Both the position numbers and the translations under genes were made by a program. Source: Pedobacter sp. (GTDB lineage Bacteria; Desulfobacterota; Desulfuromonadia; Desulfuromonadales; Syntrophotaleaceae). From it: a stretch of 64,000 nt of DNA. This document shows, piece after piece, positions 40,625-55,929 of this stretch. The notes below the pieces were generated by a model. That model was not told where the DNA came from and did not search any database. It saw only the letters and a list, made by a program, of their open reading frames with translations. Location: NCBI GenBank assembly GCA_050253415.1, contig JBFWJC010000002.1:64001-128000 (forward strand), given 5' to 3'. The stretch's first letter is position 1; the number at the start of each line of letters is the position of its first letter.

Positions 40625-42325
40625 TTAACTCTCCAGGCCTTTGCGCATAATCTGATGTCTCTGCCAATAGCGCCCCAGGGCGTCTTTGAGCTGCGACCGT
40701 TGTTTTCTGATTCCCGGCAGTTTTATCTTGGTGGTCTTGGCACCGAGCAACCCTTTTTCCGGGTGAATTATCTGGAGGATATCGCTACCGAAAGCATCTT
40801 CGTATTTCATGTTGGTCACGCTATCCCACGATAGAAGTTCATTTTCTTTTGGCAGGATCAGGCCCTTGTAACTTATGGTAATTCGCTTCCCGCCACGAAG
40901 CCCGAACTCCAGCGGCGGAAAATATTTGAGCACAATTTCTTCCTCGGATTCGTTCGCCGGCAGGAAACAATAGGCCAGTTTTTCCTCATGCGCCGAGGCA
41001 AAGCGGTTTTCGTAAAGCGCCCACAAAGCTTGTTCGATGTTGTCAGCGTTGGGAACATCGGGTATCCATGTGGTGTTTGCCGGCTGGGTAACGATCTGGC
41101 TGTAGTCTTGTTCGTTCACTTCAAAGCCAACGTTACGCATGCGTTCTCGCAGCGCAGGGTGAGAGTCGAAGGGGTGGGGGATGCTGGACTCACGCATCTC
41201 GTCGAGGAACTGCGCGGAAGCGGCATAGGGCGCTAAACCGGTAGCTATGCGATCGGCAATCTTGAGTTGGGACTCATGCCGATCTTCTTTGGCAAATAGT
41301 TTTTCCTCAATGACGTCACGGTAACGGGCGTAGCCGCTGATTTTGATCAAGGAGCGAACGAGCCCCTGTGCCGAAACCAAGGTGGCGGCAACATGGTCGG
41401 CAAGAAACTCGCGAGCGCGGCTATCGCGCTTGAGTGCAAACTCGAAGATCACCCGATACAGGCGAAGTACGTAGAAAGCAAGGATGGTGGCGCTTGCCGA
41501 GTACATCAAGGCACAATAAAAATCGTATTGGGCGAGTTTGGGGCCAAGCAGCGCGCTACTGGCTGTATCCCCGCCACGGAAGTGTGCCAATTCGTGCATG
41601 AGCACTGCATCGGCCTCACCGCGGTCGAGCAGGCGCAGCAAGGGTAAACTGACAAACAACGAGCGTCCGCTCAAAGTCCTGTCTTTGATACACAGCGGTG
41701 CTTCTGTGACGAAAAAATTCGTGTCGATACCCGCGACGATATTATCCGGAGGCGCTGTCCCGGCTTTTGCGGCCAGCTCGCGAACATGCGTCCAGATTGG
41801 CGAGGCATTACTTTCGTCGATCAATTCACCATCCAGGTTTGTAGCCTGGGGCACCTGTTTAAAAATGCAGACAACGGCGTGAAACACGCCCATGGCTGAG
41901 ATGATGGCGGCAATCCCGATCAGTTTCAGAAAATAGACCTTGAAAAAGAAAGCGGTAAGCCAAAAGGCCAACCAGACCAGCAACGCACCCTGTACAACGA
42001 TTTCGATAGCGCAGAACACCGTCAATAATCGCCACCCGGTCACGAAACTCAGATACTGCGTTCGGCGATTGGCAAACGCGGCGGCACCAAGAGAGCAGAT
42101 CGCTAGCAGCATGACAACCCCGGCAATCAAGATCGTCGTAGAGAGCTTGCCGGTGACCTGAAACTGCCACAAAGGCGAGAACGGCCTGGCGGCTATGTCG
42201 GTTGCCCCCGGAGGCAGGGCATAGCATACGAAGGACCATGCTATGAGAGGTACAAGGAACAGAGCCATCAAGGCTGATATGACGATCTTGATTAAATCTT
42301 TGCGCAGAGGGGCGGTGATGGACAT
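40625..42325 (-). CDS. M48 (HtpX/Ste24-like) membrane metallopeptidase
   Basis: N-terminal TMs; HELAH, REFLAD, SHP.L.ER. Confidence 0.85.
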   Translation of the reverse strand: MSITAPLRKDLIKIVISALMALFLVPLIAWSFVCYALPPGATDIAARPFSPLWQFQVTGKLSTTILIAGVVMLLAICSLGAAAFANRRTQYLSFVTGWRLLTVFCAIEIVVQGALLVWLAFWLTAFFFKVYFLKLIGIAAIISAMGVFHAVVCIFKQVPQATNLDGELIDESNASPIWTHVRELAAKAGTAPPDNIVAGIDTNFFVTEAPLCIKDRTLSGRSLFVSLPLLRLLDRGEADAVLMHELAHFRGGDTASSALLGPKLAQYDFYCALMYSASATILAFYVLRLYRVIFEFALKRDSRAREFLADHVAATLVSAQGLVRSLIKISGYARYRDVIEEKLFAKEDRHESQLKIADRIATGLAPYAASAQFLDEMRESSIPHPFDSHPALRERMRNVGFEVNEQDYSQIVTQPANTTWIPDVPNADNIEQALWALYENRFASAHEEKLAYCFLPANESEEEIVLKYFPPLEFGLRGGKRITISYKGLILPKENELLSWDSVTNMKYEDAFGSDILQIIHPEKGLLGAKTTKIKLPGIRKQRSQLKDALGRYWQRHQIMRKGLES

Positions 42326-42382
42326 GGCAAGGCTTCTCCCGTTTTTCGAGTTCTCTGGCTTCGTATTCAATGCTTGTTTTCT

Positions 42383-42552
42383 GGGGAAATTTAAAACTCA
42401 GGGACACTCCCCTGTTTTCTTTGGGTCACGTGATGTGGGTGTCCGGGGGCGACTATGCGAGCGATTATCGGCATGGGGGCAGGATAAAAGAAATCTAAAT
42501 TAGGGGCAATTAAATTTTATGTAAAATAGGGGGAGTGTCCCTGGTTTGTCCT
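42383..42552 (-). mobile_element. Internally deleted (MITE-like) derivative of the RAYT element at 45108-45869
   Basis: Same ends (cagggacactcccc / ggggagtgtccct), near-identical upstream region, and only about the first 18 transposase codons. Confidence 0.8.
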
Positions 42553-42590
42553 GGGAAATTGAGGGATACTCCCGAATGGCGCTGGTTTTC
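42553..42590 (+). repeat. REP-like repeat copy 1
   Basis: gggaaattgagggatactcccgaatggcgctggtttt; direct repeat at 44354-44390. Confidence 0.7.
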
Positions 42591-42667
42591 CTCTGCGGAA
42601 CGTCCCCTCTTGGCAAGTGAACTCCGAAGGCATATCTGGCGGCACAATGAGTCTCTGGGATGACCGG

Positions 42668-43246
42668 TTAGCTCAAAAGAAGCATGTCGGGCAAATTTTC
42701 AAAGACAAGTCGAACGTCATCGTATTGTTCGAGGACTCTTACGACTTCCGGATGCGGATTTGCCCATATTTCGGGTAAGTCCCGTTCTTCTCTGTCATGT
42801 ATCGAAAACGCAAGAGCCTCAACAGGAGGGGTGAATTTCGCATCAATCCCTGGCTTGTTGCCTCGGGCATCGATGCGGTACCATCCATATTCCTTTATGA
42901 ACACGGCGTTCAGTCCATGCAGGCAATATGGGGGCTCTTTATCATTCACAGATAAACGTTGATAACAGAGCCCAGTCGGGATTCCGTTTTTACGTAGCAG
43001 TGCTGCTAAAAGATGACTTTTGGCATAACAATAGCCTGTGCCGTAAAGCAGAACGTCCGAGGCGCGGCAAGTCACAGGGTTTAGTTTGTAATCCCAACTG
43101 TGCTTAATTTCGTCTCGAACGAATTCAAAGCAGCGTCGTATCAGGTCCTGTTCGCTCGAAGCCCCCTTCGCCAGTTGTGCTGCTTTTCGAATAATTTCAG
43201 GATTGTCAAAATCAATATATGTACTCTTTTGAAGATATTTATTCAT
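42668..43246 (-). CDS. Transglutaminase-like protein (putative gene cassette)
   Basis: GYCYAKSHL, HGLNA, IDARG triad motifs; stop codon lies within AGCTAAC (R'' box). Confidence 0.85.
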   Translation of the reverse strand: MNKYLQKSTYIDFDNPEIIRKAAQLAKGASSEQDLIRRCFEFVRDEIKHSWDYKLNPVTCRASDVLLYGTGYCYAKSHLLAALLRKNGIPTGLCYQRLSVNDKEPPYCLHGLNAVFIKEYGWYRIDARGNKPGIDAKFTPPVEALAFSIHDREERDLPEIWANPHPEVVRVLEQYDDVRLVFENLPDMLLLS

Positions 43247-43255
43247 AAGTGGCCT

Positions 43256-43352
43256 GGCTGACATGTGGGGTGAGGGGCGCGGGGGAGCCCAGTTCGGAAA
43301 AGGTACCATACCATTTTGTGGTCTTGCATCGACTGCATTGGCCTTGTCGGGT
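43256..43352 (-). other. Degenerate attC-like site between beta-lactamase and transglutaminase genes
   Basis: ACCCGAC..GTCAGCC variants of RYYYAAC..GTTRRRY; weak internal symmetry. Confidence 0.45.
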
Positions 43353-43354
43353 TT

Positions 43355-44230
43355 CTATCGATTTTTTAATAGAACATCGCAAGTGATTCGAGCTACATCA
43401 GCAATAACCGCACTTTTTGTGTCGTTGGAAGCGGCAGACCCCGTATAAAACACCGTGACAATGAAAGGATCAAGTCCTCTGGGAAAAACAATTGCAACGT
43501 CGTTGCTTGCTCCATTTCCCCCGCTTCCAGTCTTGTCACCGACTACCCAAAAATTGTCGAAACCCGCTCGGAGTTTTTTCGCCCCAGTCGTATTCCCAAA
43601 CATCCATGCCTTGAGTTGTTCTTTGGATGCGGGCGAAAGGTAATCACCCATCAAAATCTTATGGAGCGTTTCAGCCATCGCCTTTGGGGTGCTGGTATCA
43701 CGTAAGTCACCTGGTATGTTCGTATTCAAAGACGGCTCATTTCGATCTAAACGCGTTGTGTTGTCGCCGATGGAGCGAAGGTACTCTGTAAGTGCTTTGG
43801 GGCCACCTATCGCATCAAGGAGTAAGTTGGCAGCCGTATTGTCGCTGTATTGAATGGATGCGGCGTTCAATTCGGACACCGTCATATGTCCTGTACTTAG
43901 GTTGTCTTTTGTAATTGGCGCATACTCAAGAATATCACTTGATTTATAAGATATTGGTCTATCCAGAGCCTCCATATTTGTATCGACTCTGGACAGAATG
44001 GCAGCCCCTAACAAAGCTTTGAACGTACTGCACATCGCAAATCGCTCGTTTTCTCGATAAGAAAGAAGCGGTGTTCCATTAGCCGAAATGACCGAAACAC
44101 CAATCCGTCCACTACTTTCATTCTCAAGCGTTGAAATTCTAGATGTAAATTCTTTCGACGGAACCGGTTCTTCCGAAGCTAATGCCAGTGATGTGAGCAG
44201 AATCATAAACAAAGTTAAGACATATCGCAT
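43355..44230 (-). CDS. bla: Class A serine beta-lactamase (putative gene cassette)
   Basis: Signal peptide; CSTFK, SDN, EPSLN, KTG; GTTAGGT core site at 44269-44275 upstream. Confidence 0.95.
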   Translation of the reverse strand: MRYVLTLFMILLTSLALASEEPVPSKEFTSRISTLENESSGRIGVSVISANGTPLLSYRENERFAMCSTFKALLGAAILSRVDTNMEALDRPISYKSSDILEYAPITKDNLSTGHMTVSELNAASIQYSDNTAANLLLDAIGGPKALTEYLRSIGDNTTRLDRNEPSLNTNIPGDLRDTSTPKAMAETLHKILMGDYLSPASKEQLKAWMFGNTTGAKKLRAGFDNFWVVGDKTGSGGNGASNDVAIVFPRGLDPFIVTVFYTGSAASNDTKSAVIADVARITCDVLLKNR

Positions 44231-44353
44231 AAATTTGACTTCCTTGAGGGTAGAACGGTTTGGCCTAAACCTAACGAGCCTGTAGGAAAACCCCACAACT
44301 CTCTCGATTGATAAAAATCAGTCCCGGAATTTTATATCAAATCCATTTTTCTT

Positions 44354-44390
44354 GGGGGAAATTTAGGGATATCCGAATGGCGCTCGTTTT
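44354..44390 (+). repeat. REP-like repeat copy 2
   Basis: ggggaaatttagggatatccgaatggcgctcgtttt. Confidence 0.7.
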
Positions 44391-44557
44391 AAAAACAACA
44401 GGAACCCTTCGCATATTTTTCATTGCCACGAACCCTTGCTTGCGATAGCATCTCCGCCATTTCCAGCACTGCCGAATCATAGCAGCCGGTCACCCGCTCA
44501 TTTCACACGGCACGACAACGATCGCGCCGTAGCCTGTTTGCAGTTGAATTTCCTGAC

Positions 44558-45082
44558 ATGACCAACGACTCCTATATCACCTATCGCCCCATCGGCATCC
44601 TGCGATCCCCCTATACCCGGCGCATTGATGCACCTCATCAAAGCACAGTGGTGGAAGGCACTGAAACCGGAGCGTTGGCCACAGCTACCCTGGAACTTCA
44701 GGATTGGCTGGACGAGAAAGTCATCCAAGATCTGGCCGGCTTCGAGCGACTTTGGCTCATCTTCGACTTTAATCGGAGTGAAGGCTGGAAAAGCAGCGTC
44801 AAACCGCCCCGGGGTGGACCGAAGCGGGGTGTTCTGGCCACCCGCTCCCCTCATCGTCCCAATTCCATCGGCCTTTCGGCGGTGGAATTGGTCAAGATCG
44901 AAGGCAGGACGCTGCACCTTCGCGGCGTGGATCTCCTGGATGGCACCCCTGTTCTGGATATCAAACCCTACGTGCCCTACGCGGACGCCTTTCCCGACGC
45001 CAAGGCCGGCTGGATCGACGATCTGGATGAAAAGCTGGGACGTCATTCCGCGCCAGGACCTCGCAGGCCCAGGGGTGGGTAA
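44558..45082 (+). CDS. trmO: tRNA (t6A37)-methyltransferase TrmO/TsaA
   Basis: GVLATRSPHRPNSIGLS, DLLDGTPVLDIKPY. Confidence 0.92.
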   Translation: MTNDSYITYRPIGILRSPYTRRIDAPHQSTVVEGTETGALATATLELQDWLDEKVIQDLAGFERLWLIFDFNRSEGWKSSVKPPRGGPKRGVLATRSPHRPNSIGLSAVELVKIEGRTLHLRGVDLLDGTPVLDIKPYVPYADAFPDAKAGWIDDLDEKLGRHSAPGPRRPRGG

Positions 45083-45107
45083 GAACGCTGTCGTGGCCTT
45101 GCCTATC

Positions 45108-45869
45108 GGGAAATTCAGGGACACTTCCCTGTTTTCTTTCTGGCCTTCCTAGTTTACTCAACCTCAATACTTGATTCAGTTGCAGTTCCATTTTTTCAAT
45201 AAATACATCTGATCCGAAGGGGCGTCCTGATCTGGTAGCTTTGCGTAGCAAATTTTCTGTTTGTTCGTCTTCTTGCGACACAAATCTGGCGTAGGCTTCC
45301 CTGTTATCCAGAGAGAGCCAAGAAGGCTCAGTCAGCAGGTCATCCTTTGTACCGTTAATATGAGTTTTTGCACTGGACCAGCGATAAATTTCTGCCCTGT
45401 CGGCAAGTCCTGCTTTCACCGGATTATTTTCGATGTAGCGTGCAACAGACCAGAGGTATGCGTCATCTTCAACGATGCAGGAAAAAAAGCGATTCTGCCA
45501 AATTCGACCACCCTGTTTCAACTTTCGATTCAAGTATTGGGTATAGACCTGAGTAGTCAGGCCGACGCCACGTGAAAGGGAGTCTTCCTTATCGGGAACC
45601 GCAAGAGGTGCACATGGTTGTCCGTCAGACAGTAGGCCCAAAGTTGTAAAGAGTGCCGCCTAGAGTATTTATGAAGGAGTTTCAGATAAGTATGGCGATC
45701 CTCATCATCGAAAAAGGTCACAGGGCGATTGTTGCCACGTTGGGTCACGTAATGTGGGTGTCCAGGGGCGACTAAGCGAGCGATTCTTTTCATAGAGGAA
45801 GGATAAAAGAAATATAAATTAGAGGCAATTAAATTTTATATAAAATAGGGGGAGTGTCCCTAATTTTCC
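45108..45869 (-). mobile_element. REP-associated tyrosine transposase (Y1/HUH) element 1, frameshifted
   Basis: ORFs 45557-45793 (VTQRGNNR, NHVHLL) and 44961-45641 (WQNRF, YIENNPVKAG) join by a 1-nt shift near 45605; terminal IRs ggaaattcagggacacttccc / ggggagtgtccctaattttcc. Confidence 0.88.
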
Positions 45870-45973
45870 TACAACGACACTGATGAAGGGCGACGGCACA
45901 CCGTGACAGACAGCACCGCATTTTTCGGGCAGCAGCCAGGCCCCTTTCGTCCCGCTCGATCAATTGGTTAGAC
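45869..45973 (-). other. attC site
   Basis: Minus strand GTCTAAC...GTTGTAG with imperfect internal dyad; directly abuts the RAYT IR. Confidence 0.7.
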
Positions 45974-46547
45974 GATTACTTTAAATGCAAGAAACAGTTC
46001 TTCTTCCGGCACAAACTTATGCAAGGTTTTGCTCAAAATGGTTATTGAGTTAAAGCATTTATTTACTGTTTCCTGCCCGTTGGTTAAGTAGTCTGACTAC
46101 ATTTTTAGCAAGGCTTCGGCGTCAATTTCGCCGTTTCTGAACGGTATCGCCTTAGATTTTGGATGTATAAGCTTGTTTTGTATTTTGAATAGAAAGTCTA
46201 GGGTTTCGTATGCTTGCTGGTCTTTCGGAAAGTCTTTCCTGCAATCATTTTGATTAAAACTATGCATTTAGAGAATGTATCGAGTTTGTCGATATGTTTA
46301 CTAAAAAAGGAATCGCCCCAATTTATGGAAGCGTAATCGTTGACAAAAGATTCTAGGTCCATTGCAGTGAAGACAATCGTTTTTATGCCAGAGTTCTCTC
46401 TGGATTTTCCTATTTCGAAATAAAGGTAAGAATCTTCTTCTAGGGTTGGCTCACGGTCTAGTGAAAATGACTCATCAAAAAAATTTTTTCACTTGAGGGA
46501 AATTTTATATAGGTCCACCAGAAAGAATTTTATCTTGCGTAGCTCAT
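45968..46547 (-). pseudogene. Decayed HEPN-like cassette gene
   Basis: Manual translation SGIKTIVFTAMDLESFVNDYA...IQNKLIHPK with two stops and frameshifts; resembles 54214-54834. Confidence 0.7.
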
Positions 46548-46559
46548 AATTATTCTTTC

Positions 46560-46642
46560 GTCTAAAGCCGCCAACACGTGCGGCCTTAGAGTGGAGGCGA
46601 ATCCGAAACGGAAAGACCGTCACGTACTTGGCATTGTTATGC
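46560..46642 (-). other. attC site (G of R' box mutated to T)
   Basis: GCATAAC-aatgccaagtacgtg...cacgtgttggcggc-TTTAGAC. Confidence 0.75.
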
Positions 46643-46712
46643 TGCTTGCAGACAATATTATTCTATGAAAATAGGAAAATAACGGCCAAGCATCTTAGCC
46701 AGTTTAAAGAAG

Positions 46713-47453
46713 TCATGATTTCCTAAACACTAAAACATTTGATCTAAACAATTTAAAAAGAAAAGAAATTACTTTGCTATTGCACGCTAAGGAGTATTTC
46801 CCAGAGCGGTAGTACTTTAATATCAAACTTCCGTGATTTCCTAAGTACTCAAAACCGCTTTTTTCAAATGCCTCAACAATAGCGCTATTACTTCGATATT
46901 CAGTGTATTTTCTCACATACTGTAAGGCTTCTTCAGGATTAGTTTTGAATTTCTCTCTAAAAAATCCAAATCTAGCACACATATTATAATAAATCTTATT
47001 TTTTAATATTCCACCGAACGGAACTCCTACATGAGGCTCAAGAATAGAGTATTTGGAAGGAAAGTAGTGTATTACTAATCCACCTGTTCTAAGTATGCGT
47101 GAATTTTCAGATATAAAATCATCAATGTTTTTAACATGCTCTAGCACAGCTCTGCTAGCCACAACGTTAAATATACAATCTTCGAAAGGCCAAATATATT
47201 GATCTTCCGAACTTCGAATGCTTGATCTAGAGGTAGCCGACATTCTAATCTTTTTGATGTAGCCCTCATCCAGCAGTTTTTTTGTATGCGGTCCTAGTTT
47301 AAATTCAACGTCCGTACCGAAAGTCGTATAACCCTTTTTTTTCAACTCTATGACGTTTCCGCCGTTCCCACAACCTACATCTAGGATTGAAATATCGTGT
47401 TTGCTAGTATTTGCATAGGATCGAATTAGCTCCTCTAAAATTTCAAGGTACAT
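46713..47453 (-). CDS. Class I SAM-dependent methyltransferase (cassette)
   Basis: ILDVGCGNG, VLEHV, RILRTGG; AT-rich, bounded by attC sites. Confidence 0.85.
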   Translation of the reverse strand: MYLEILEELIRSYANTSKHDISILDVGCGNGGNVIELKKKGYTTFGTDVEFKLGPHTKKLLDEGYIKKIRMSATSRSSIRSSEDQYIWPFEDCIFNVVASRAVLEHVKNIDDFISENSRILRTGGLVIHYFPSKYSILEPHVGVPFGGILKNKIYYNMCARFGFFREKFKTNPEEALQYVRKYTEYRSNSAIVEAFEKSGFEYLGNHGSLILKYYRSGKYSLACNSKVISFLFKLFRSNVLVFRKS

Positions 47454-47510
47454 GCTTTCTTATTCCATAAAATATATTTTAATTACGCACTTGGCGCATT
47501 GAAAAACTTA

Positions 47511-47625
47511 GCACAACGGTTCATGATAACTGGCGGCGACGAATTGTTCGAACAACACCGCAATTTAGTTTTGCTTTTCAATTTAGCGCAGACGTATTTT
47601 CCGTCGGTTGATTAGTTTGTTAGCC
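47511..47625 (-). other. attC site
   Basis: GGCTAAC...GTTGTGC with dyad symmetry; homologous to 54110-54227. Confidence 0.8.
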
Positions 47626-48243
47626 CAATGGAATGTTTTGCAAAAGAGAATTTAGTGACTTTGAACCTGTAGGGCTGAGTAGCCATATGAAACCAAATAA
47701 GTTCAAAACCACGGTTACCCAAAATATGAATCTGAAGGATTCTTTTTTTGTCTTATGTCGTAAATTTTGCTGAGCGACTAATGCACCAGGCCAACCGCCA
47801 GCTAATGAAAACTTGTGCAAAGTGCTTTCCTGGATTCTCCATTTGCCTTTTTTGGAAGCGGACTTGTCCAATGCGTAGGCAATATATGTGAGGATGCTTA
47901 ACGATATGTAAATAATAAGGATGTGTATTGGAAGCTTCCCGCTTAGCACCGTAGCTGCCACAGTTCCCATAAATAGTATCGCTAATGCAAATGGAAATTT
48001 AGCCGAACTTTTGTTTTCGTACCTAACAGATCTTTCCTCTGCGCGAGTTGCGTTTATGGCACATTGACGACCTTTTTTGTCTATGGATTCACTGTAATTG
48101 ACTTTTTGACCGATCTCGGGTTGGCGGTAACGGTTGCTGAAGTCTTTGATATGGACAAAGATTTGTTTTCCACCAGAAGCGGGTAAAATAAAGCCGAATC
48201 CTTTGTCTTTGTTCCACGACGCGATGGTCCCTCTTTTTCTCAT
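47620..48243 (-). CDS. Cold-shock domain + DUF1294 protein (cassette)
   Basis: WNKDKGFGFI, IFVHI; DK.A....WRI.E.TL, GGWPGA, RHKT.K..F; stop within the R'' box. Confidence 0.9.
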   Translation of the reverse strand: MRKRGTIASWNKDKGFGFILPASGGKQIFVHIKDFSNRYRQPEIGQKVNYSESIDKKGRQCAINATRAEERSVRYENKSSAKFPFALAILFMGTVAATVLSGKLPIHILIIYISLSILTYIAYALDKSASKKGKWRIQESTLHKFSLAGGWPGALVAQQNLRHKTKKESFRFIFWVTVVLNLFGFIWLLSPTGSKSLNSLLQNIPLG

Positions 48244-48259
48244 ATCATTTTCTTTTAAG

Positions 48260-48338
48260 GGCTAACGTTAAGTTCACCGACGGCGTTCACGCCGTCCGAG
48301 CGTAGCGCAGCAAAGCGGTGTGCAACGATTGGTTAGCA
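48260..48338 (-). other. attC site
   Basis: TGCTAAC-caatcgttgcacaccg...cggtgaacttaac-GTTAGCC, clear dyad with extrahelical base. Confidence 0.85.
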
Positions 48339-48395
48339 AATTTTATTAATGGTTGCACTTGTTGATGTTTAATCACTATTTATCATTTTTAGAAA

Positions 48396-48688
48396 ATTTA
48401 TAATAAATTACAAAGCTAAATAGTGAAACTATCAATAAAGACAAAAATGAAAGTAAGCGACTTTTTGAGTAGTAAACTCTGGCAAGCTCCATTTGACTTT
48501 GCGTTGAATAATATGTTACCCAAGCATCACTTTCGATAAACCCAATGGAGTATTTGCTTCTATTTATTTGCCGAACTTCAAAGCCTCTACCTTCTTATCT
48601 CATCCCCTTTGAGTCCTGTCTTTTCAGCCATTGAGACAATTCATCTCTACCTGGAAATCGCTGTTGGTTTGCTGGGTTTGTGGGGTTT
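48396..48688 (-). pseudogene. 5'-truncated cassette ORF remnant with internal stop and C-terminal TM
   Basis: Manual translation ..FPGRDELSQWLKRQDSKGMR*EGRG...LLSFLSLLIVSLFSFVIYYKFSKNDK*; cut by the RAYT-2 end. Confidence 0.5.
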
Positions 48689-49616
48689 GGGGTCGGACCA
48701 AGCTAACCTGTTGAATCCATAAACAAAATATCAAGAAAATAGCTGTTATTCGAGCTTAAAACCACCTTTTGGGGACCAAAATCAACCCTGTAAGGTTCAG
48801 ATGCCTCCCTCAACACACATCGGTCGGCCTCTAGTTGCTCGATTTTTCTTCCCAGCCCCTGCCTACCAAGCCTAGTCTTTATATCTTCAATAAATCCCAT
48901 ACCACCAACAGCGATACTCTCAGTCCAGAAACTTTCCCTTTGATGATTTCTGTCGCTAATGGCCGCATCGACCCATTGCCGGTGCTGCCTGGAAAACTCC
49001 TTGGAGTCCGAAAATCCGCAAAGGTTCCTTAAGCCCGCCTGGTCAATCACACCATACCGTTCAGGCGGATTCTGGATCTCGTTGTAGCCACACATATCCC
49101 ATTCCGATGGATGATTCACCACACCAGCGCGGACCATGTTGAGGTCCATATAAACAAGGCATCTGACAAGGTGTTCATTCCGCTCAACAGCTGTAGCGTG
49201 ATAACGGTCTTCCCAGAACGCTCCCTTGCGCTTTTTGCGTTGATTGAATTCTTGGGCGGTTCGGCTGGCAATCAGTTGCAGGCTTTTTGGAATGACATCC
49301 GGGCTATCATCAATGACCAATAGATGGATATGATTGGACGTGACGACATAATTTAATATTCTCAAGCCAAAGCGTTTCTTGGCTTCAAACAGCCAGGACT
49401 TCCAACGTCTTCTGTCCTTGGCGAATTTGAGGAGGAACTCTTTTTTATGGCAACGATGGGTGATATGCCATACCTGCCCGGGAATATGATGTCGGTTTGC
49501 TCTTGCCATTCTTAGACATCTCTTTTTGCCAGTGAAAACGCGTCGCTAAGATCAAATAAAGGGAAAAATAAGCCTATTTTCCGAATCATTACAGTTGTTT
49601 AGCTTGGTCCGGCCCC
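48689..49616 (-). mobile_element. REP-associated tyrosine transposase element 2 with 18-bp terminal inverted repeats
   Basis: ggggtcggaccaagctaa / ttagcttggtccggcccc (17 of 18 match); no target duplication seen. Confidence 0.85.
48703..49509 (-). CDS. RAYT / Y1 HUH transposase, apparently intact
   Basis: HITHRC, NHIHLL (HUH), FWEDRYH, YMDLNMVRAG. Confidence 0.9.
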   Translation of the reverse strand: MARANRHHIPGQVWHITHRCHKKEFLLKFAKDRRRWKSWLFEAKKRFGLRILNYVVTSNHIHLLVIDDSPDVIPKSLQLIASRTAQEFNQRKKRKGAFWEDRYHATAVERNEHLVRCLVYMDLNMVRAGVVNHPSEWDMCGYNEIQNPPERYGVIDQAGLRNLCGFSDSKEFSRQHRQWVDAAISDRNHQRESFWTESIAVGGMGFIEDIKTRLGRQGLGRKIEQLEADRCVLREASEPYRVDFGPQKVVLSSNNSYFLDILFMDSTG

Positions 49617-50387
49617 GACAAAACCGCTTTCTACACTTAACATTCGATCTAGCAATATTTTGTGAATGGCAGAAATTGCCATTTCGACCATTATTGCCAT
49701 CTTACCGATTTCGAGATTTAGATCGTCACTATAATCTAATATTTGCAATGCTAATATTGCACGATTGCAACTGTTTTTTAAGTCATGTAACCGACATCTT
49801 TCATCCGTTTTAAGGGTAGCGGATCGAACTGCATAAAACTCCTGTGCAGCCAGGAACAATTCTTCAATTATTTTAAAGGTATGCTTTAATTCGCGTCGAT
49901 TCAAAAGTATAGTGTGATCATGTCGAAATTGGAGATTATATGCCTTGAAATAGGCATTCCTTAGATCTGTCCATGCTGTCAAAATTGATTCTTCAGAGAT
50001 TGCAGTTCTGATATCTTCAATAGTACAATTAGTGTCTTGCTTAGAAACTATTATATGTAATCTTGTGTTAAGAGGAATTGGTAAGGACAAATAGTTAAGT
50101 GATATTAGTAAAGGATGCGCTTTGTATTGTGATTTAATTAACTCATCAATATCATCTTGAGTTATATTAAGAATTTTAAGTGACTGTTTAGCCACAAGGG
50201 AATATTTAAAGTATGTATCCATTGAGTTTGTTGGTTTACTTATTTGTTGTTCGACTTTATTTTTTGTAGCCTTTAAGGCGCGACGTCTTAAAAATTTCAA
50301 GAAATAAGAGGATGCAGAGACGACTAATACTGTCCCTGCACCGCTAAATATCCAGTCCTTTGCGTCAATAACCCAATCAAGTGACAT
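49599..50387 (-). CDS. Hypothetical cassette protein with N-terminal TM; 3' end supplied by RAYT-2 IR
   Basis: KDWIFSGAGTVLVV N-terminal anchor; final GAGPS* encoded by the IR. Confidence 0.7.
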   Translation of the reverse strand: MSLDWVIDAKDWIFSGAGTVLVVSASSYFLKFLRRRALKATKNKVEQQISKPTNSMDTYFKYSLVAKQSLKILNITQDDIDELIKSQYKAHPLLISLNYLSLPIPLNTRLHIIVSKQDTNCTIEDIRTAISEESILTAWTDLRNAYFKAYNLQFRHDHTILLNRRELKHTFKIIEELFLAAQEFYAVRSATLKTDERCRLHDLKNSCNRAILALQILDYSDDLNLEIGKMAIMVEMAISAIHKILLDRMLSVESGFVGAGPS

Positions 50388-50440
50388 TTAATCACCTCTC
50401 GCCAATATTGACAAATTCATTCCATACTCATAGTCTTATT

Positions 50441-50556
50441 GTTTTAGTACCAAACTTACCGGCGGCAATGGAGCGCAGGAAACGTCCCTGAATTCCTCAC
50501 TGCGGCAAATTTGGAGCGCAGCGGAAAGTTTGTCCGACACCAGCGCATTGTTATGT
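50441..50556 (-). other. Chimeric or interrupted attC containing a REP-like motif
   Basis: ACATAAC left arm, then ggaattcagggacgtt, then a different attC-like right arm. Confidence 0.6.
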
Positions 50557-50567
50557 GAGGTTATCAC

Positions 50568-51428
50568 TCAGGCCACCTCTACCATCAGTGCTAAACACAT
50601 AATTCTTTCCCAATGGTTCACAAAGGGCGCAGCATCAATTGCGGGCTGCAAAATGGTGCTTTTTGCAACCTCAAGCTCCAATGGTATTTGCAACAAAGCT
50701 TGAATTTGCGCTAAATAAGTAACCAGCCTTGGGCCAGCCTCTTTTGAGAACCTTAAGTCTAAATTAAAATCATTAAAGTGTTTTTTTACTCGAAGTTTTT
50801 GGGTATCCTCCCAATGTTCTGGAGGTCTAACGAAGTACTCAATAACCCCAGGTTCACCGCCTGTATCTGCTGTATATCGAGCAAATATCCACTGCTCGTT
50901 GAAATACCGATCGTTATCCAAATATGGTTGAAGTACTTGTTCTGCTTCACTAGTGGCAAAGTTCTCTCCTTTGCCATCCATGTTGCAGTCTCTGCACGAG
51001 GGCACCAAGTTGACCGGCAATACCGAAAATTGTGGGTAGTGCGCTTTGGGCAGGAAATGATCCAAGTTTCGAGGGCGGCCGATACCACCGCAAAAAGGAC
51101 ATTTCTCGTTGGCCGCAGCCATCAAGGCATTATAAATTACGCGGGCAGGTTTATCCTCTTTTACAAAGTAAGTGCTATACAGCTTTAACAGATCCGATTT
51201 CTTTAGCTGCCCAACAACAACTGGGTCATGATCCCGGCCATTAGGAGTCGAAGGTATAGTGTACAGTTCTCCTCTAGAGGCTGACGCGGTATAGCCAACT
51301 GCACTAGCTTGCAAAAGGTGCATGTCGTTATCCACTTTTTGCAGTAATTCGTCATTGCCTGTGATTCCTTGGCGACACATTTCAATTACTTGCTCACTTG
51401 AATAAGCAGGTTGTTTAAGCTTTAACAT
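50568..51428 (-). CDS. HNH endonuclease (Septu PtuB-like)
   Basis: CPFCG...LDHFLPK...NLVPSCRDCN; TGATG coupling to the ATPase. Confidence 0.85.
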   Translation of the reverse strand: MLKLKQPAYSSEQVIEMCRQGITGNDELLQKVDNDMHLLQASAVGYTASASRGELYTIPSTPNGRDHDPVVVGQLKKSDLLKLYSTYFVKEDKPARVIYNALMAAANEKCPFCGGIGRPRNLDHFLPKAHYPQFSVLPVNLVPSCRDCNMDGKGENFATSEAEQVLQPYLDNDRYFNEQWIFARYTADTGGEPGVIEYFVRPPEHWEDTQKLRVKKHFNDFNLDLRFSKEAGPRLVTYLAQIQALLQIPLELEVAKSTILQPAIDAAPFVNHWERIMCLALMVEVA

Positions 51429-52945
51429 CAACCTGCGCTCCTATCGCGATGCGTTACAAGTGCTTTCAATAACGCACGCGCTTCTAAACCAAGTTGGTTG
51501 TTATATTCGTTCACTATCTGTTGGTATGAGCTTCCTCTCTCGACAGACTTTACCAATAAATCGTGAAAACCTGACTTCACCACTTCAAGCCCAAACACCT
51601 CTCTGGTTAAGACGCCAACATTTTCACCAAATGTCTCGATATCAGGTCTGCGCGGATCAGTGACCATACCAACCAGATTAATTTTCCAGGCACTAGACCT
51701 AGGAACTTCTTGCAGCACAACGGGTGAGTGTGTGGCTATAATTGACACACCATTTCGGTCATGAAGTAGTTCAGATAAAGCGCGAATAAAAGCTGATAGC
51801 AATGGTGGGTGAAGATGACTTTCTGGCTCATCAATAAGAACCAAAGTTTTTTCTTCAACGGTGGCAACTAGTCGAGTGATGGTTAGCAACACCACAGCAT
51901 GACCAGAGCTCATTCTTCTGATCGTTTTGTGCGCTTTTTTCGTTAGCTCCTCGCTGGAGAATTGAGTAAGGCCCTTCAATCCCATGCTTGCAAAATTTTC
52001 ATCTGATTCCAGTGTATCTATCGCTTTTAACCACCTATCGCGCTTAGAAATTTGACTAAAGCAAGATTTTAAAGCCTGGAGAAAGTCCTGGTGTATATCA
52101 TAAAGCCCCTTGAGAGTGTCACCTCCCTTTTTCAGTCCTATATAAAAATAACATGTCCCCAGAGAAGGATCTGGTTGTTCCATGGGAGGTTCAAAAGGGT
52201 CAAAAGCACTAAATGACACAGATACCAAACTACTGAAATAATCGGTATCAATAGGGCTGGCATGACAGCCCTCAACATCATAAAACTTGGCCTCTGACTG
52301 ACCTTTACTAGTGATGGCTTCGATCATCCCATTGAGGAGAGTTGTCTTGCCTACACCATTCCGGCCTATAATTGCATGAATATTAGTGCTCGGCCTTGAT
52401 TCAACCTCCACCTTAAACTTCAATTCGATACCAGAAATTTTATCTTTCCTGGGTCTAACAAACTTGAACTCAAAATTTGTCAGTGGGGGAAGGCAAGCCA
52501 ATACCCTAGAATACTGCCCTTTAATGACAGATAAGCTGACACCTCTCAGCAAGGAGGTTCGAAAAACTTCCTCCTCTTGAGCAAGCTCAATCAACTCAGG
52601 AGTTAAAACGATGTCTTTTAATGCTGTGAGTAATTTATTTCTGAACTGTACTGGCAAAGAAGATATTTTTTTGTAATAGTCAACATCTTGACCCACAGAA
52701 AAATACCCATCAGGCAACTGCTGGAAGGAATTGCTTAGTAATGAGTAAGTTGTTTTTTCTTTTGTTTGACCTTTAAAGCCAATTTTTACATTACCAAGGT
52801 CATGGAGAGACCCCTTATCGTCATGTAATTCTAGGTAAAACATGGTTACAAACGAGAAGTCATTCCAGTGGTCAATGGTTAGATAAGCAGTATTCAACCC
52901 AGACGGAGGAGTTTTTGCATCTCTTGGCAAAATAATAAAGTTCAT
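51428..52945 (-). CDS. ABC-type ATPase (Septu PtuA-like)
   Basis: GRNGVGKT, MSSG, LIDEPESHLHP, ATHSP; no TM partner gene. Confidence 0.88.
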   Translation of the reverse strand: MNFIILPRDAKTPPSGLNTAYLTIDHWNDFSFVTMFYLELHDDKGSLHDLGNVKIGFKGQTKEKTTYSLLSNSFQQLPDGYFSVGQDVDYYKKISSLPVQFRNKLLTALKDIVLTPELIELAQEEEVFRTSLLRGVSLSVIKGQYSRVLACLPPLTNFEFKFVRPRKDKISGIELKFKVEVESRPSTNIHAIIGRNGVGKTTLLNGMIEAITSKGQSEAKFYDVEGCHASPIDTDYFSSLVSVSFSAFDPFEPPMEQPDPSLGTCYFYIGLKKGGDTLKGLYDIHQDFLQALKSCFSQISKRDRWLKAIDTLESDENFASMGLKGLTQFSSEELTKKAHKTIRRMSSGHAVVLLTITRLVATVEEKTLVLIDEPESHLHPPLLSAFIRALSELLHDRNGVSIIATHSPVVLQEVPRSSAWKINLVGMVTDPRRPDIETFGENVGVLTREVFGLEVVKSGFHDLLVKSVERGSSYQQIVNEYNNQLGLEARALLKALVTHRDRSAG

Positions 52946-52976
52946 TTTTTAACACTACTTATTATCGGTGAATATC

Positions 52977-53079
52977 ACATAAATAATTGGTTTAAGCGGC
53001 AGCCCACCGCAGAACAAACTGGTTGATACTATTAGGGAAGTCCCCCGCTTCTTCTGTCCGCCTGAAATTCTTGTTAGCT
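52977..53079 (-). other. attC site (G of R' box mutated to T)
   Basis: AGCTAAC-aagaatttcaggcgg...ccgcttaaaccaatta-TTTATGT. Confidence 0.75.
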
Positions 53080-53083
53080 TTAC

Positions 53084-54085
53084 TTATTCCCAAGACTCGC
53101 CATTTAATTTGTTTGCTAGGTCCCTCGAATTAGTACATTCACCCACTAAACCATAAAAATACTTTTTTGATTGAAACATGCCCCCACTTGAGACTTTTCT
53201 GAAGTTTGTTTCTGAGCCATTAGACAGAATAAAAACTTGGAGGGGGGTCTTTTCGTTTTCTGCGGTCCTGTGCGCAGATGCGCTGATATGACCAATTGCA
53301 ATCTCTTCCAGTTTTTTATTTGATATATCTTTGTTTTTCCACTTCAACTTGACGTTTGACATATTTACGTCAACTGAAACAACCGCATCTATTTCGTATA
53401 TTTTTGATACGTTTTTATTGGCGTATGGGCCAAAGAACTTGGCTCGCCGATGTCTATAGGCCCCACCTTTGTCTGGGCACATATATGCTCCATTTTTAAC
53501 CTCATGTAGAGTTCCTCTGCAATTTACTACTTCCAAAAGTTTTTTCCATCTAGGCAAGCGTCCACTTCTATCTAAGTAGTTTTCGAACTCTTCAAGGTGG
53601 CTTTTAAAAACATCAGAAGACCGCGCTCCTTTTAAGCATTTCATAAATTCTTCAAAAGAAATAGCCTGTAGAATTATGCCTGACTCCTGCGCCACTGCTC
53701 TATCTTTAGAGAATCTTTCTTCATATTCTTCTGTTTGAAAATTTGATATTAGGAAAAGGATTTTTGTGCCGTTCTCAGAGCTAAGGCCATCAATATGCCT
53801 CTTAATCTGGCTTGAATAAAACCAGTCGGTGAGTTTTGTTTCGAAAAATATGGAAAAAGCCTTTTGGCTAATTGAAAGGTCCGGAATACTTTTTACCTCT
53901 TTATGTTGCTGGGCAAATGTTGGCCCTACCATTAGGTCAACATCACCAGATACCATTGATGTGATGGTTTCTTCGAAACTTGCTGGATTCTCAGAATAGA
54001 GCAACTTAAGAATGAGACCACAGTAATTAGTAAGTGAATTCTCTTTTTGGCGATAATCAGAAAAGAGTGAAATTTCTCGCCCCAT
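53084..54085 (-). CDS. Putative PD-(D/E)XK nuclease-domain protein (cassette)
   Basis: ENSLT helix, then IPDLSISQKAFSIFFETK (PD...ExK); start set at MGREI after the attC. Confidence 0.65.
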   Translation of the reverse strand: MGREISLFSDYRQKENSLTNYCGLILKLLYSENPASFEETITSMVSGDVDLMVGPTFAQQHKEVKSIPDLSISQKAFSIFFETKLTDWFYSSQIKRHIDGLSSENGTKILFLISNFQTEEYEERFSKDRAVAQESGIILQAISFEEFMKCLKGARSSDVFKSHLEEFENYLDRSGRLPRWKKLLEVVNCRGTLHEVKNGAYMCPDKGGAYRHRRAKFFGPYANKNVSKIYEIDAVVSVDVNMSNVKLKWKNKDISNKKLEEIAIGHISASAHRTAENEKTPLQVFILSNGSETNFRKVSSGGMFQSKKYFYGLVGECTNSRDLANKLNGESWE

Positions 54086-54109
54086 TTTTTTCCTTTTAAT
54101 TGTTTTGAA

Positions 54110-54227
54110 CGCTAACTGTTTATGATAACCGGCGGCGACGAACTGCTCGAACACCACCGCAATTTTAGATTTTGTTTCTCAATTTTGCACAGAAGCGTTT
54201 TCCGGCTGGTTGATTATGTTGTTAGGT
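54110..54227 (-). other. attC site
   Basis: ACCTAAC-aacataatcaaccag...ccggttatcataaaca-GTTAGCG. Confidence 0.82.
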
Positions 54228-54834: not shown

Positions 54835-54842
54835 ATTTTAAA

Positions 54843-54946
54843 AGCTAACGTTGTGGTAACCGGCTGCGTCGTGCCGGAACAAATTAGTAGAGACCTTTAC
54901 GGGAGTCGCCCCTGTATCACCAGTCCGGTTGACCTATTGGTTGGGA
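54843..54946 (-). other. attC site
   Basis: TCCCAAC-caataggtcaaccgg...ccggttaccacaac-GTTAGCT. Confidence 0.82.
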
Positions 54947-55075
54947 ATGGTGTAGGGCTTTGGTCTCATCATCATTCCAGACTCTGGGAATGATTTGAAG
55001 GTGCATGAGAAAACTCAACCCCTGATCATCAAAATATAAGCTTTCTCGCATCTTTCAATGTCGGATATCTTCAAG

Positions 55076-55408
55076 TCACTGAGCTCCTAAACGGACTATG
55101 CCATAATCAACTCCACCACGGGGCGAAGGGGCAAGTTTGACTTCATAAGTAACTTTCTTTCCATTACTATCAATATTCCAGTGCTCAACATATGATGACC
55201 CCTCTTTTCCAACCGTGTTAGCTGAAAGCAATTTGGGGTGAGCGTCTCCTCCTGCTGCTGACTCATATATGCCAATCATCCGCATTACATCAGACTGCAA
55301 TTTTGCATCAGCCACCGTTCCGTGAGATTGTGGGGCTACTGCACAGCCAGCAGCAATGAGTGCAATAAATACAAATGCAATGGGAAGTACTTTAAGAATC
55401 AACCTCAT
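55076..55408 (-). CDS. Small lipoprotein, first cassette of the array
   Basis: GGAGG RBS; AAGC lipobox; bounded by GTTGGGC and TCCCAAC. Confidence 0.75.
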   Translation of the reverse strand: MRLILKVLPIAFVFIALIAAGCAVAPQSHGTVADAKLQSDVMRMIGIYESAAGGDAHPKLLSANTVGKEGSSYVEHWNIDSNGKKVTYEVKLAPSPRGGVDYGIVRLGAQ

Positions 55409-55434
55409 GCCATCCTCCAAGTTAAAGTGTTCAT

Positions 55435-55500
55435 GCCCAACATTGTTGATAAGCGGAAAACTGTCCATCATATTACCCTTATAGAATGGACTATTTTCCA
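55435..55500 (-). other. Putative attI site
   Basis: GTTGGGC core matching the first cassette's TCCCAAC, with no attC hairpin upstream. Confidence 0.5.
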
Positions 55501-55929
55501 TTTATTGAATTATTAAAGGGGTAAAAGTGGAAAATATCGCCTTGATTTTTCCACCTGCTGATAAAGCCATGCCTGCATAGTTGCGCCGAGCAAGTTGCCT
55601 TGGTAGTCGGCCATAAAAAAGCCGCCCTCCGGTTCTTCTCCGGTTGGACGGCTCTAGTTGACCCCTGCGGTATATCTATTTGTCGGCATGTTCCCTCCTA
55701 AAAGATTCCACATTGACGATTCGCAAATGTAACTAATTTAACTATTGCAGGTCAAGGATTGAGTATGTCTTTGGAGAAAAAGTGGATTGTACCAGGGCGA
55801 AGCATAATCCGACGCCCAGGCTAATGCTCCAGGCTATGAGAAAAGCCTCCGGTTCAGCGATCGTGGGCTTTTTCTTATGGAAATATAGATACTTATATAA
55901 TTTCAGCACCCTTGGTTTATGCTCAAAGG

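Follow-up and report, generated by a model that had tools for sequence, protein, structure and literature searches.

In many bacteria, mobile adaptive genes are stored mainly in integron arrays, and we know of only two kinds of mobile elements that home to attC sites. IS1111-attC insertion sequences, which encode DEDD transposases, target attC. Group IIC-attC introns are also attC-targeting mobile elements, as described in the available portion of PMC3001079. Clusters of attC sites lacking an integron-integrase are termed CALINs (Cury et al. 2016, PMC4889954, in the sections available). It is established that HUH transposases and IntI both act on folded single strands, a point discussed in the accessible part of PMC8266576. 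According to the excerpts available, TIRtrons or TIRYTs are terminal-inverted-repeat-associated tyrosine transposases (Di Nocera et al. 2013, PMC3733652; subclasses in Quentin et al. 2018, PMC6006769) with low-copy repeat families, some present as dimers or clusters, and the motif GGGGWSAS occurs in the repeats of many, though not all, published TIRtrons (PMC3733652). The words ‘integron’ and ‘attC’ do not occur in the main text of PMC3733652, PMC6006769 or PMC5581495. The sole published precedent, in the part of PMC7923331 available, is an IS200/IS605 element located distally in a CALIN, for which clustering of single-stranded DNA elements was speculated; beyond this anecdote we found no description in the literature of an array bias of TIRtron-type elements.

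The DNA analysed here, a window of 64,000 nucleotides, contains on its minus strand (45869-55560) an integron array composed of an attI-like remnant and seven model-supported attC sites, without intI. Sites were called with two covariance models (R1 and R2), both trained on one genome and of low sensitivity; R1 was trained solely on the 14 attC beside the genome's true intI, and its structure was written by hand because RNAalifold gave only 6 pairs. A home-made finder combining core-site pairing with DNA folding was insensitive and unspecific, and was dropped in favor of the covariance models. The array reads as follows:

55455..55560, minus strand: attI-like, intI-proximal remnant at the start of the array, with ~90% identity over ~115 nt to the sequence adjacent to the start of the true intI (L004 ~5300-5415)
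54843..54946, minus strand: attC (R1 93.1 bits, E=1.9e-22)
54110..54227, minus strand: attC (R1 27.0 bits, E=1.5e-4)
52977..53079, minus strand: attC (R1 33.9 bits, E=2e-6)
50436..50562, minus strand: degenerate attC-like site carrying a 29-nt insertion at its center; apart from this it aligns with three attC of the CCGCTGCGCTCC subfamily
48260..48338, minus strand: attC (R1 27.4 bits, E=1.2e-4)
47511..47625, minus strand: attC (R1 34.6 bits, E=1.3e-6)
46560..46642, minus strand: weak attC (R1 13.2 bits, E=0.79; R2 21.7 bits)
45869..45973, minus strand: last attC of the array, with R′ box GTTGTAG (R1 29.6 bits, E=3e-5)

A preliminary description of this DNA had placed two transposons in a cassette array lacking IntI. 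The array itself is borne out: at least two attC in one orientation are present, in the form of seven minus-strand matches to a model built from the intI-linked array. The absence of IntI holds at the window locus, where no intI adjoins the sites as in a complete integron, but not for the genome, which encodes a full IntI on another contig (G000:C1:1750302-1751246; 447.6 bits against a cut-off of 265, the genome's sole match above it). With IntI encoded elsewhere and no neighboring intI, the cluster resembles a CALIN; it differs in retaining the attI-like remnant, whose similarity to the intI flank ends where intI would start, so the array probably derives from a complete integron, as a copy or as a relic. 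Minimum-energy folding of each strand of the last attC (45869..45973) gave no strong attC hairpin (z +0.7 and +1.2).

Two different Y1_Tnp/RAYT-like genes, RAYT-1 and RAYT-2, lie within this array, each with inverted repeats of its own, as had been described:

45108..45869, minus strand: E1, a TIRtron with a frameshifted RAYT-like gene (RAYT-1) between hairpin-containing inverted repeats
48689..49616, minus strand: E2, a TIRtron with an intact RAYT-like gene (RAYT-2, 48703..49509) and terminal inverted repeats at both ends

RAYT-1 is broken, its two frames (45557..45793 and 45150..45641) overlapping. The E1 repeats (5′ at 45849-45869, 3′ at 45109-45129) are 21 nt long and 86% complementary, with the 3′ repeat folding at -7.2 kcal/mol (z -4.3). 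The E2 repeats (5′ at 49599-49616, 3′ at 48689-48706) are 18 nt long and 94% complementary, showed no fold on their own in silico, and include the RAYT-2 stop codon within the 3′ copy. In relatives from other genomes their consensus, GGGGTCGGACCAAGCTAAC, is kept at 63 left and 68 right ends, and a YAAC...GTTR pair conserved at their inner edge resembles attC core sites. E2 is placed inside a cassette. The claim that it truncates ORFs on both sides could not be confirmed: the upstream 262-aa ORF stops within the E2 repeat and lacks a homologue for comparison (neither 200 genomes of the order nor a set of 5.8 billion proteins yielded one), and the other side carries no ORF of at least 50 aa.

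The best NCBIfam model for both genes is REP_Tyr_transpos (NF047646), at 68.5 bits for RAYT-2 and 45.2 + 19.8 bits for the RAYT-1 fragments, short of the 80-bit cut-off; RAYT-2 also matches Pfam PF01797 (E=3.2e-10). The HUH motif is present as HIH in RAYT-2 and HVH in RAYT-1. A tyrosine in R-Y-x-x-x-N-P context (R-Y-I-x-N-N-P) lines up with DYIYINP in E. coli TnpAREP (PDB 4ER8), a segment in which we take the catalytic tyrosine of that enzyme to lie, with the phmmer match to 4ER8 being weak (E-value 0.14). Enzyme fold family and tyrosine context are shared with REPtrons such as E. coli TnpAREP and the Pseudomonas REPIN systems. The E1 repeats are moreover small hairpins inverted around the gene, one copy has GTAG before it, and the E1 deletion derivatives are REPIN-like. 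The elements differ from REPtrons in the sub-threshold scores, in E2 repeats without a fold of their own, in the several gene copies per genome found among relatives, and in repeat number: the 4.1-Mb genome holds 9 exact E1 cores (19 copies at ≤1 mismatch, against 6.2 expected by composition) and 4 exact E2 repeats, where REPtrons have tens to hundreds. The label ‘REP/RAYT’ in the strict sense, as used in the preliminary description, is accordingly set aside, since copy numbers are about 4-19 and not hundreds and the elements match the TIRtron/TIRYT class. Y1/HUH chemistry on single strands, with strand-specific insertion to be expected, is shared with IS200/IS605; the ends of that family are subterminal hairpins, whereas the window elements have inverted repeats, no tnpB and a tyrosine in the RAYT-type position, and NCBIfam transpos_IS200 reaches 28.7 bits against a cut-off of 55. 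With a RAYT-like Y1/HUH gene between terminal inverted repeats, ends conserved in relatives and no high-copy REPs, E1, E2 and a third element elsewhere in the genome are members of the described TIRtron/TIRYT class, a likeness drawn from published descriptions, in the portions available. The motifs GGGGAGTG (E1), GGGGTCGG (E2) and GGGGACGC (third element) are GGGG-led, and each fits 7 of the 8 positions of GGGGWSAS.

The distribution of these elements in the genome is markedly uneven. Eight of the nine exact E1 cores, representing four of five loci, lie ≤4 kb from attC matches, a zone that makes up 2.99% of the genome, and three of its five substantial Y1 genes are within arrays. Low-GC contigs without attC contain zero E1 repeats, none of the seven rve-type transposase matches is near an array, and no DDE_Tnp_1 match was found in this genome. 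In a complete sister genome of the same genus, two arrays contain 6 of the 9 exact cores. The preliminary description had proposed that an even spread without attC bias would refute its reading; copies are instead concentrated at arrays in both genomes. That two unrelated transposons merely met in one array, with coincidental motif matches, might be argued from there being just two elements in the window, from the uninformativeness of 7-nt motifs and from the weakness of the motif at 42598-42613. Such chance co-location is already contradicted by the counts, as the enrichment, always in one orientation, appears in two genomes and, over many taxa, in two gene families, and we give it almost no credence.

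Relatives in other genomes extend the pattern. Among 80 E2 loci, which are the relatives closest to an E2 copy that itself sits in an array, 19 have 36 attC matches at E≤1, and two more loci appear with filters off (21/80 within 8 kb); in the remaining 59 no attC was detected over that distance, which makes arrays a preferred target at best. In a uniform genome-wide list, 5 of 50 E2 loci have attC within 8 kb, against ~0.45 expected from 112 attC matches in ~200 Mb. For E1, 7 of 29 relatives (±1.5 kb per locus) have attC matches, four of them at E<1e-6. Six multi-copy RAYT-1 clusters were considered as classical arrays and rejected as such, an attC match being found in three of the regions and none in the other three. 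Outer E2 flanks (600 nt) are alike in just one pair of loci, and 67 of 68 sampled copies have unrelated flanks; the sampled copies thus sit in independent insertion contexts and did not share one travelling cassette. With conserved repeat pairs, unrelated flanks and deletion derivatives, E1 and E2 are discrete mobile units, and elements of this kind occur in Desulfobacterota, Gamma- and Betaproteobacteria, Scalindua and others.

These counts also bear on a passive origin, in which elements land anywhere, survive mainly in arrays because these are dispensable, spread between genomes in cassettes moved by IntI, and owe their orientation to selection, which might act against antisense transcription or favor read-through expression from an array promoter. 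Insertion sequences are indeed frequent in integrons or their vicinity, with 12% of CALINs and 23% of complete integrons affected (PMC4889954, in the part available). DDE transposases show some excess near attC as well, at 4 of the 150 DDE_Tnp_1 genes listed for 32 of the genomes above, against ~1.4 expected, in a small control that compares two tables by eye and includes many IS copies on short contigs. E2 keeps no fixed distance from attC, the genome has a working-looking IntI, and the array adjacent to E1 is wholly different between the two sister species. Against passive accumulation stand the unrelated E2 flanks, the rve transposases away from arrays and the attC-free low-GC contigs devoid of E1 repeats, together with two features described below, orientation and contact with attC; on balance we regard it as unlikely, though a serious alternative.

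Orientation relative to attC is fixed. All attC matches at E≤1 lie on the transposase strand, 38/38 (36 + 2) for E2 and 15/15 (11 + 4) for E1 relatives, and 53 co-oriented matches of 53 are hard to obtain from tolerance alone. The five solo E1 repeats in this genome's arrays are likewise all co-oriented with attC. While the window array runs against the usual replication rule, which other arrays follow, the elements follow the array, a hint only, given a single genome and skew as a rough proxy. Selection or expression needs could alternatively produce such co-orientation.

Contact with attC is closer for the E1 type than for E2. The first repeat base of E1 is position 45869, the last base of the attC R′ box (minus strand GTCGTTGTAGGAAAATTAGGGACAC), where the R1 attC match ends; the abutment reported earlier is thus confirmed. 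E1-type repeats lie 0-2 nt past R′ both here and at L009 8803-8835, beside a 22.4-bit attC match, and by-eye readings of half sites, on which the cases inside attC depend, place such repeats directly after the L″ half of attC in L009 (~9449-9516), L097 and L131. Two further by-eye junctions (L017 and L019) were left uncounted, as R2 with filters off gave no call. The third element starts 18 nt past an R′ and one E2 relative 13 nt past another; distances in the E2 family to the nearest attC run 13, 34, 39, 133, 257 ... 5024 nt, and look like random placement within cassettes, with no fixed spacing. The E1 type is tied more closely than E2 to the attC hairpin itself, and its more frequent contact with attC than with cassette interiors speaks against passive accumulation. 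The preference for integron arrays and the single orientation relative to attC recall IS1111-attC elements and group IIC-attC introns. Those use a DEDD transposase or reverse splicing at one defined attC position, whereas the window elements have HUH/Y1 chemistry and varied positions (R′ foot, central loop, cassette interior), lying 0-18 nt past R′, after L″ or hundreds of nucleotides away.

We favor the explanation, at a probability of roughly 0.55, that TIRtrons have inserted repeatedly, repeat-to-repeat, into cassette arrays by strand-specific targeting of single strands. RAYT-like enzymes would integrate strand-specifically into single-stranded DNA, and arrays packed with attC would extrude or fold hairpins that leave single-stranded DNA unusually accessible on one strand. 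Insertion could fall in the loop that separates the L boxes, at the foot beside R′, or on the top strand displaced in transcription or replication. The expected outcome would be a regional, orientation-fixed preference with no single exact site, and by-products may include split or truncated attC, ORF-less repeat ‘cassettes’ and elements left at the distal array end. Both the single-strand targeting and the strand that serves are what we infer from these patterns. Weighing against the explanation, E1 has an orthologue (intact, 226 aa, 95% nucleotide identity) at the same chromosomal position in the sister species, so that the E1/attC junction in the window is one old event and not a fresh one, and the attC beside E1 folds poorly in silico.

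If this explanation is correct, a third attC-homing kind of element, working by HUH single-strand chemistry, would exist across many taxa, and would act as a natural reporter, showing when attC DNA becomes single-stranded in cells and which of its strands does so. It would also account for some CALIN ends and some cassettes that are split or fused. ISfinder, to our knowledge, holds no RAYT/TIRYT elements, and integron surveys that rely on it for insertion-sequence screening would have a blind spot. One intact enzyme, RAYT-2, together with defined oligonucleotides would allow a direct test of the idea of attC cleavage.

That idea, the reading of the preliminary description, goes further: RAYT-like enzymes would recognize and cleave folded attC strands, and delete or move cassettes without IntI. 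The attC bias it calls for is seen, and orientation is invariant; RAYT cutting of attC and cassette moving are unsupported. The use of folded single strands by both systems (PMC8266576, in the part available) is in keeping with it, as are the E1-type repeats at the R′ foot or central attC with half sites left, the YAAC...GTTR pair in the E2 repeats, the turnover between sister species of the array beside a retained E1, and the similar speculation on the CALIN-adjacent IS200/IS605 element (PMC7923331, as far as available). The genome's IntI, however, explains the turnover and can act in trans, insertions do not share one attC position, and RAYT-1 of the window is broken. Contigs from four public runs over 42000-56500 contain no junction lacking E2 or a cassette and none that joins across E1, E2 or a cassette, though such contigs drop rare variants and are uninformative on rare excision; the joints seen were between paralogous attC (47515-47625 and 54110-54227) or came from the genome's third mini-element mapping on E1. 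We consider cleavage of attC by these enzymes improbable.

We think it equally doubtful that TIRYT enzymes use folded attC as surrogate element ends, forming a second, integrase-independent array engine that nicks at or beside hairpins. Were this so, cassettes would be deleted, fused or moved and array ends fixed, attC-like hairpins might be seeded behind genes, with a bearing on the origin of cassettes, and the process would have left as footprints the YAAC...GTTR pair in E2 repeats and the half attC next to repeats of the E1 type.

A REP-like motif had been reported to recur at two attC sites. The copy at ~50478-50497 (minus strand GGAATTCAGGGACG) does match the outer half of the E1 repeat and lies inside the 29-nt insertion of the attC-like site, but the repeat core ACACTCCCC is absent, and the surrounding site is called by neither R1 nor R2. 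The ‘broken attC’ at 42598-42613 could not be upheld, having no attC model match and only a 10-nt motif in common. Present there instead are a deletion copy of E1 and two further repeat-like copies:

42383..42550, minus strand: miniature internally deleted E1 copy of 170 nt, with both ends and the gene's first codons kept
42548..42590, plus strand: solo repeat like the E1 3′ end, GGGAAATTGAGGGATAC, and 86% identical to the 44350-44390 copy along 37 nt
44350..44390, plus strand: another solo repeat of this type, which is conserved in the sister species

The miniature copy, overlooked in the preliminary description, shares 88% identity with the 5′ part of E1 along 127 nt and 93% with the E1 3′ end along 29 nt, and another deletion derivative of E1 is present at G000:C1:2142-2357. 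The two solo repeats flank transglutaminase-like and class A beta-lactamase genes.

The low-GC block of the window (GC 0.37-0.42 against ~0.55-0.60 in its surroundings) is an integron cassette array on the minus strand. A true integron integrase is encoded at G000:C1:1750302-1751246 (G000 being the source genome and C1, C2 and C13 its contigs), where a genome profile search gave 447.6 bits to TIGR02249 against a cut-off of 265. Since our covariance model R1 was trained solely on 14 aligned attC sites from this intI-linked array, it provides an independent test of the array in the window. With filters off, R1 called seven attC sites there, every one on the minus strand, six with E-values of 1.9e-22 to 1.5e-4 and one weak (E=0.79); its other eight window matches had E > 1. 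Genome-wide, R1 gave 59 matches at E<=1 in approximately ten clusters. Integron remnants stand beside two of the arrays:

55455-55560, minus strand: attI-like start of the window array, ~90% identical to the DNA adjoining the intI start codon of the true integron
G000:C2:470321-470557 (2321-2557 of extracted locus L010): integron-integrase fragment just upstream of a second array, 95.7 bits, covering profile positions 228-306 only

At its opening end the window array has the attI-like flank only, with intI missing; having attI but no integrase, it counts as a CALIN (attC cluster without an integron integrase) by the definition of PMC4889954. The preliminary description of an 'array lacking IntI' is thus accurate for the immediate neighborhood, where no intI is found, but not for the genome, which encodes a full IntI elsewhere. 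The integrase fragment on C2 is a decayed second integron. Duplications were also seen in the other arrays: one cassette (ORF and attC) is present twice in the intI-linked array (L004 5420-5934 and 9534-10032), and a gene of ~850 nt is tandemly duplicated within the second array region (L010 6398-8260; G000:C2:474397-476259), the copies, roughly 7360-8260 versus 6440-7340, being near-identical by eye.

Two RAYT genes, each between its own terminal repeats, lie in the window array, as had been proposed, along with smaller relatives of the first:

48689-49616: E2, intact 268-aa gene (RAYT-2), Pfam Y1_Tnp E=3.2e-10, NCBIfam REP_Tyr_transpos 68.5 bits against a cut-off of 80; 18-nt inverted repeats, 94% complementary
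45108-45869: E1, gene (RAYT-1) split into two overlapping frames; 21-nt inverted repeats
42383-42550: 170-nt mini-copy of E1 retaining both ends and the first gene codons, absent from the preliminary description
42548-42590 and 44350-44390: two solo repeat-like copies in direct orientation, bracketing a transglutaminase-like and a class A beta-lactamase gene

Both proteins carry an HUH motif and a tyrosine in an R-Y-x-x-x-N-P context. The tyrosine segment aligns with DYIYINP of Escherichia coli TnpAREP (4ER8), and the position of the expected IS200-type tyrosine is a phenylalanine, as in TnpAREP, which makes both enzymes RAYT-type and not IS200-type. Within the E1 repeats there is a small hairpin (folding energy of the 3′ copy -7.2 kcal/mol, z -4.3); the same folding calculation found no self-folding in the E2 repeats. 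The stop codon of RAYT-2 falls within the 3′ repeat of E2. Repeat families are small: the 13-nt core of E1 has 9 exact copies in 4.1 Mb, and 19 with <=1 mismatch versus 6.2 expected by composition, and the E2 repeat has 4 exact copies in the same 4.1 Mb. With a gene between terminal inverted repeats, repeat families of low copy number and a motif led by GGGG that agrees with the published GGGGWSAS at 7 of 8 positions, E1 and E2 match the TIRtron/TIRYT class of Di Nocera et al. 2013 (PMC3733652) and Quentin et al. 2018 (PMC6006769), and they are ordinary members of this already described class.

Contact between E1 and attC is direct. The last attC, read on the minus strand, terminates ...GTCGTTGTAG, and its final G is also the first base of the E1 repeat, which bears out the reported abutment of the repeat on the attC R′ box. 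Other proposed contacts fared less well. The repeat motif at ~50478-50497 is real and sits in a 29-nt insertion of a stretch alignable to three attC sites, but neither R1 nor the broader attC model R2 calls a site there, and no attC model supports the 'broken attC' suggested at 42598-42613. Truncation of cassette ORFs on both sides of E2 was not borne out either: the upstream 262-aa ORF does stop in the E2 repeat, but offers no homologue for comparison (none in 200 genomes of the order, nor in a large protein set), and the other side has no ORF of >=50 aa.

The preliminary description had proposed that repeat copies be mapped genome-wide against attC, and when this was done they proved to be clustered. 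Within an attC zone defined as <=4 kb from the 57 best attC matches (122,812 nt, 2.99% of the genome) lie 8 of the 9 exact E1 cores, spread across four different arrays, with the ninth outside; counted by locus, the figure is 4/5. Substantial Y1 genes are in arrays in 3/5 cases in this genome, compared with 0/7 rve-type transposase matches; no DDE_Tnp_1 gene was found in it. All five solo E1 repeats in arrays are oriented like the attC top strand; the three copies facing the other way form the distal ends of E1 and the two mini-elements. In a complete genome of the same genus, 6 of 9 exact E1 cores fall within two arrays and 3 elsewhere.

Two further RAYT-like elements occur in the genome:

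G000:C2:473685-474360 (L010 5688-6360): third element, inverted repeats around a GGGGACGCCC hairpin, starting 18 nt after an attC R′ box
Contig C13: fourth element, with a long C-terminal extension (323-aa frame versus 226-268 aa in the others), far from all attC matches

In the gene of the third element HFN replaces HUH, and insertion of an E1-type hairpin has truncated it. By its extension, the fourth looks akin to the HTH-bearing subclass, as far as the consulted part of the published account describes it. Elsewhere, a 122-nt ORF-less 'cassette' (L009 8810-8931; G000:C1:343809-343930) consists of two direct E1-type hairpins between two attC sites, and ~11 perfect tandem GGGGAAAA units (L008 4195-4290; G000:C2:382195-382290) immediately precede a degenerate Y1 transposase gene.

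The association extends to other genomes. The RAYT-2 family is very large: of 8000 scored candidates, at least 7926 proteins belong to it at E<=1e-10, and Desulfuromonas, Geobacter, Pelotalea and Scalindua are among the named carriers. A pattern scan with one genome per species confirmed 600 relatives, from which the best 80 loci were kept. In these 80, R1 gave 22 attC matches at E<=1 in 15 loci and R2 gave 36 matches in 19 loci; turning filters off added two, bringing attC to 21/80 loci. All matches at E<=1 share the strand of the transposase gene; just two matches fall on the opposite strand, with E-values of 1.6 and 2.3. As a yardstick, the first 50 host genomes were searched whole, giving 112 attC matches in ~200 Mb, so that ~0.9% of sequence lies <=8 kb from a match; by this list, 5/50 E2-relative loci have a match versus ~0.45 expected. 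As a control for mobile elements in general, DDE_Tnp_1 genes in 32 of the attC-bearing genomes lay <=8 kb from a listed attC in 4 of the 150 matches listed (19 more fall outside that list), the tables being compared by eye. The RAYT-1 family has matches in 200/401 genomes of the class at E<=1e-15. Across 29 RAYT-1 loci, each taken with 1.5 kb on either side, R2 with filters off found 11 attC matches in 7 loci, four at E<1e-6 and 11/11 co-oriented with the gene; for multi-copy RAYT-1 clusters, co-oriented attC was present at 3/6.

A repeat pair of consensus GGGGTCGGACCAAGCTAAC is kept at 63 left and 68 right ends of E2 relatives, and the 600-nt flanks beyond the repeats resemble each other in a single pair of loci only. 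E2 elements have therefore moved repeat-to-repeat into different places, rather than as one cassette. Gaps from E2 to the nearest attC are 13, 34, 39, 133, 257, 311, 361, 405 and 754 nt and beyond, with no fixed site. E1-type repeats contact attC more often than E2: they lie 0-2 nt past R′ at window position 45869 and at L009 8803-8835 (adjoining a 22.4-bit attC match), and directly follow an R″-L″ half of attC, with the other half absent or displaced, at L009 ~9449-9516, L097 and L131 (by-eye assignments rather than model calls). In L098 and L099 they lie 150-180 nt inside cassettes.

The inner edge of both E2-family repeats carries a conserved YAAC...GTTR pair (window 49595-49600 and 48705-48710; YAAC frequencies T/C 0.6-0.98, A 0.94-0.98, A 0.65-0.87, C 0.63-0.71), which resembles the attC R″/R′ core sites and also the IS608 cleavage site, TTAC. 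Directly outside both repeats, many copies show short tandem duplications of the flank (window 48640-48688; 34 nt outside the repeats in L014-L093), in units of ~8-17 nt, which open with CCCC at the 3′ flank and close with GGGG at the 5′ flank; these may be stutter from repeated end processing. A conserved palindrome, TTTTTGCCGGCAAAAA, flanked by CTTA/TAAG, precedes the start codon by ~20-60 nt (window ~49520-49560 and relatives) and may be an operator or binding hairpin.

A sister species shares the chromosomal layout of beta-lactamase gene, solo repeat, trmO and E1, the last being 95% identical and carrying a 226-aa gene that is intact. Past E1, a single cassette and a truncated attC are all that precede the shared chromosomal flank. 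It follows that E1 is old and orthologous and that the adjacent array has wholly turned over. The sister E1 has an extra 386-nt insertion exactly at its 3′ end, flanked by tandem E1-type repeats (L095 1072-1457), and its repeat is tandemly duplicated at both ends; the repeat system has therefore been active since the species split. Remodelling of the array by RAYTs independently of IntI had been suggested, but IntI acting in trans is enough to account for the turnover beside E1, and public contigs over 42000-56500 contained no junction for or against attC cutting or IntI-less remodelling. The transglutaminase-like and beta-lactamase (NF033103, 326.7 bits) genes lie between direct repeat copies resembling the 3′ end of E1; because the sister species keeps trmO, the repeat and the 5′ part of the beta-lactamase gene, this segment is chromosomal and not a cassette.

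In most sedentary integrons the attC bottom strand is on the leading-strand template (25/30 in the part of PMC5371416 consulted). By local GC skew, 7/9 arrays here obey this rule. The window array is an exception, but its orientation is still the one that E1 and E2 follow, which weakly favors orientation being dictated by the array (through attC strand or transcription) rather than by replication direction alone. The bias of these elements for integron arrays, with fixed orientation, is unusual and was not found described: 'integron' and 'attC' have 0 occurrences in the main texts (supplements aside) of PMC3733652, PMC6006769 and PMC5581495. The sole exception in the literature found is PMC7923331, which reports one IS200/IS605 element next to a CALIN and speculates along similar lines.

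Two cassettes of the window array have contents of separate interest. A single cassette at 50568-52945 (minus strand) holds a two-gene module, of which the first gene encodes a 505-aa AAA/ABC-type ATPase (AAA_21, with weak PtuA and restriction-associated ATPase matches) and the second a protein of 287 aa that faintly matches a retron-type HNH; the module looks like a Septu-like anti-phage pair kept as an integron cassette. The product of the cassette at 47620-48243 (minus strand) joins a cold-shock domain to DUF1294 and weakly matches a retron Se72 effector.
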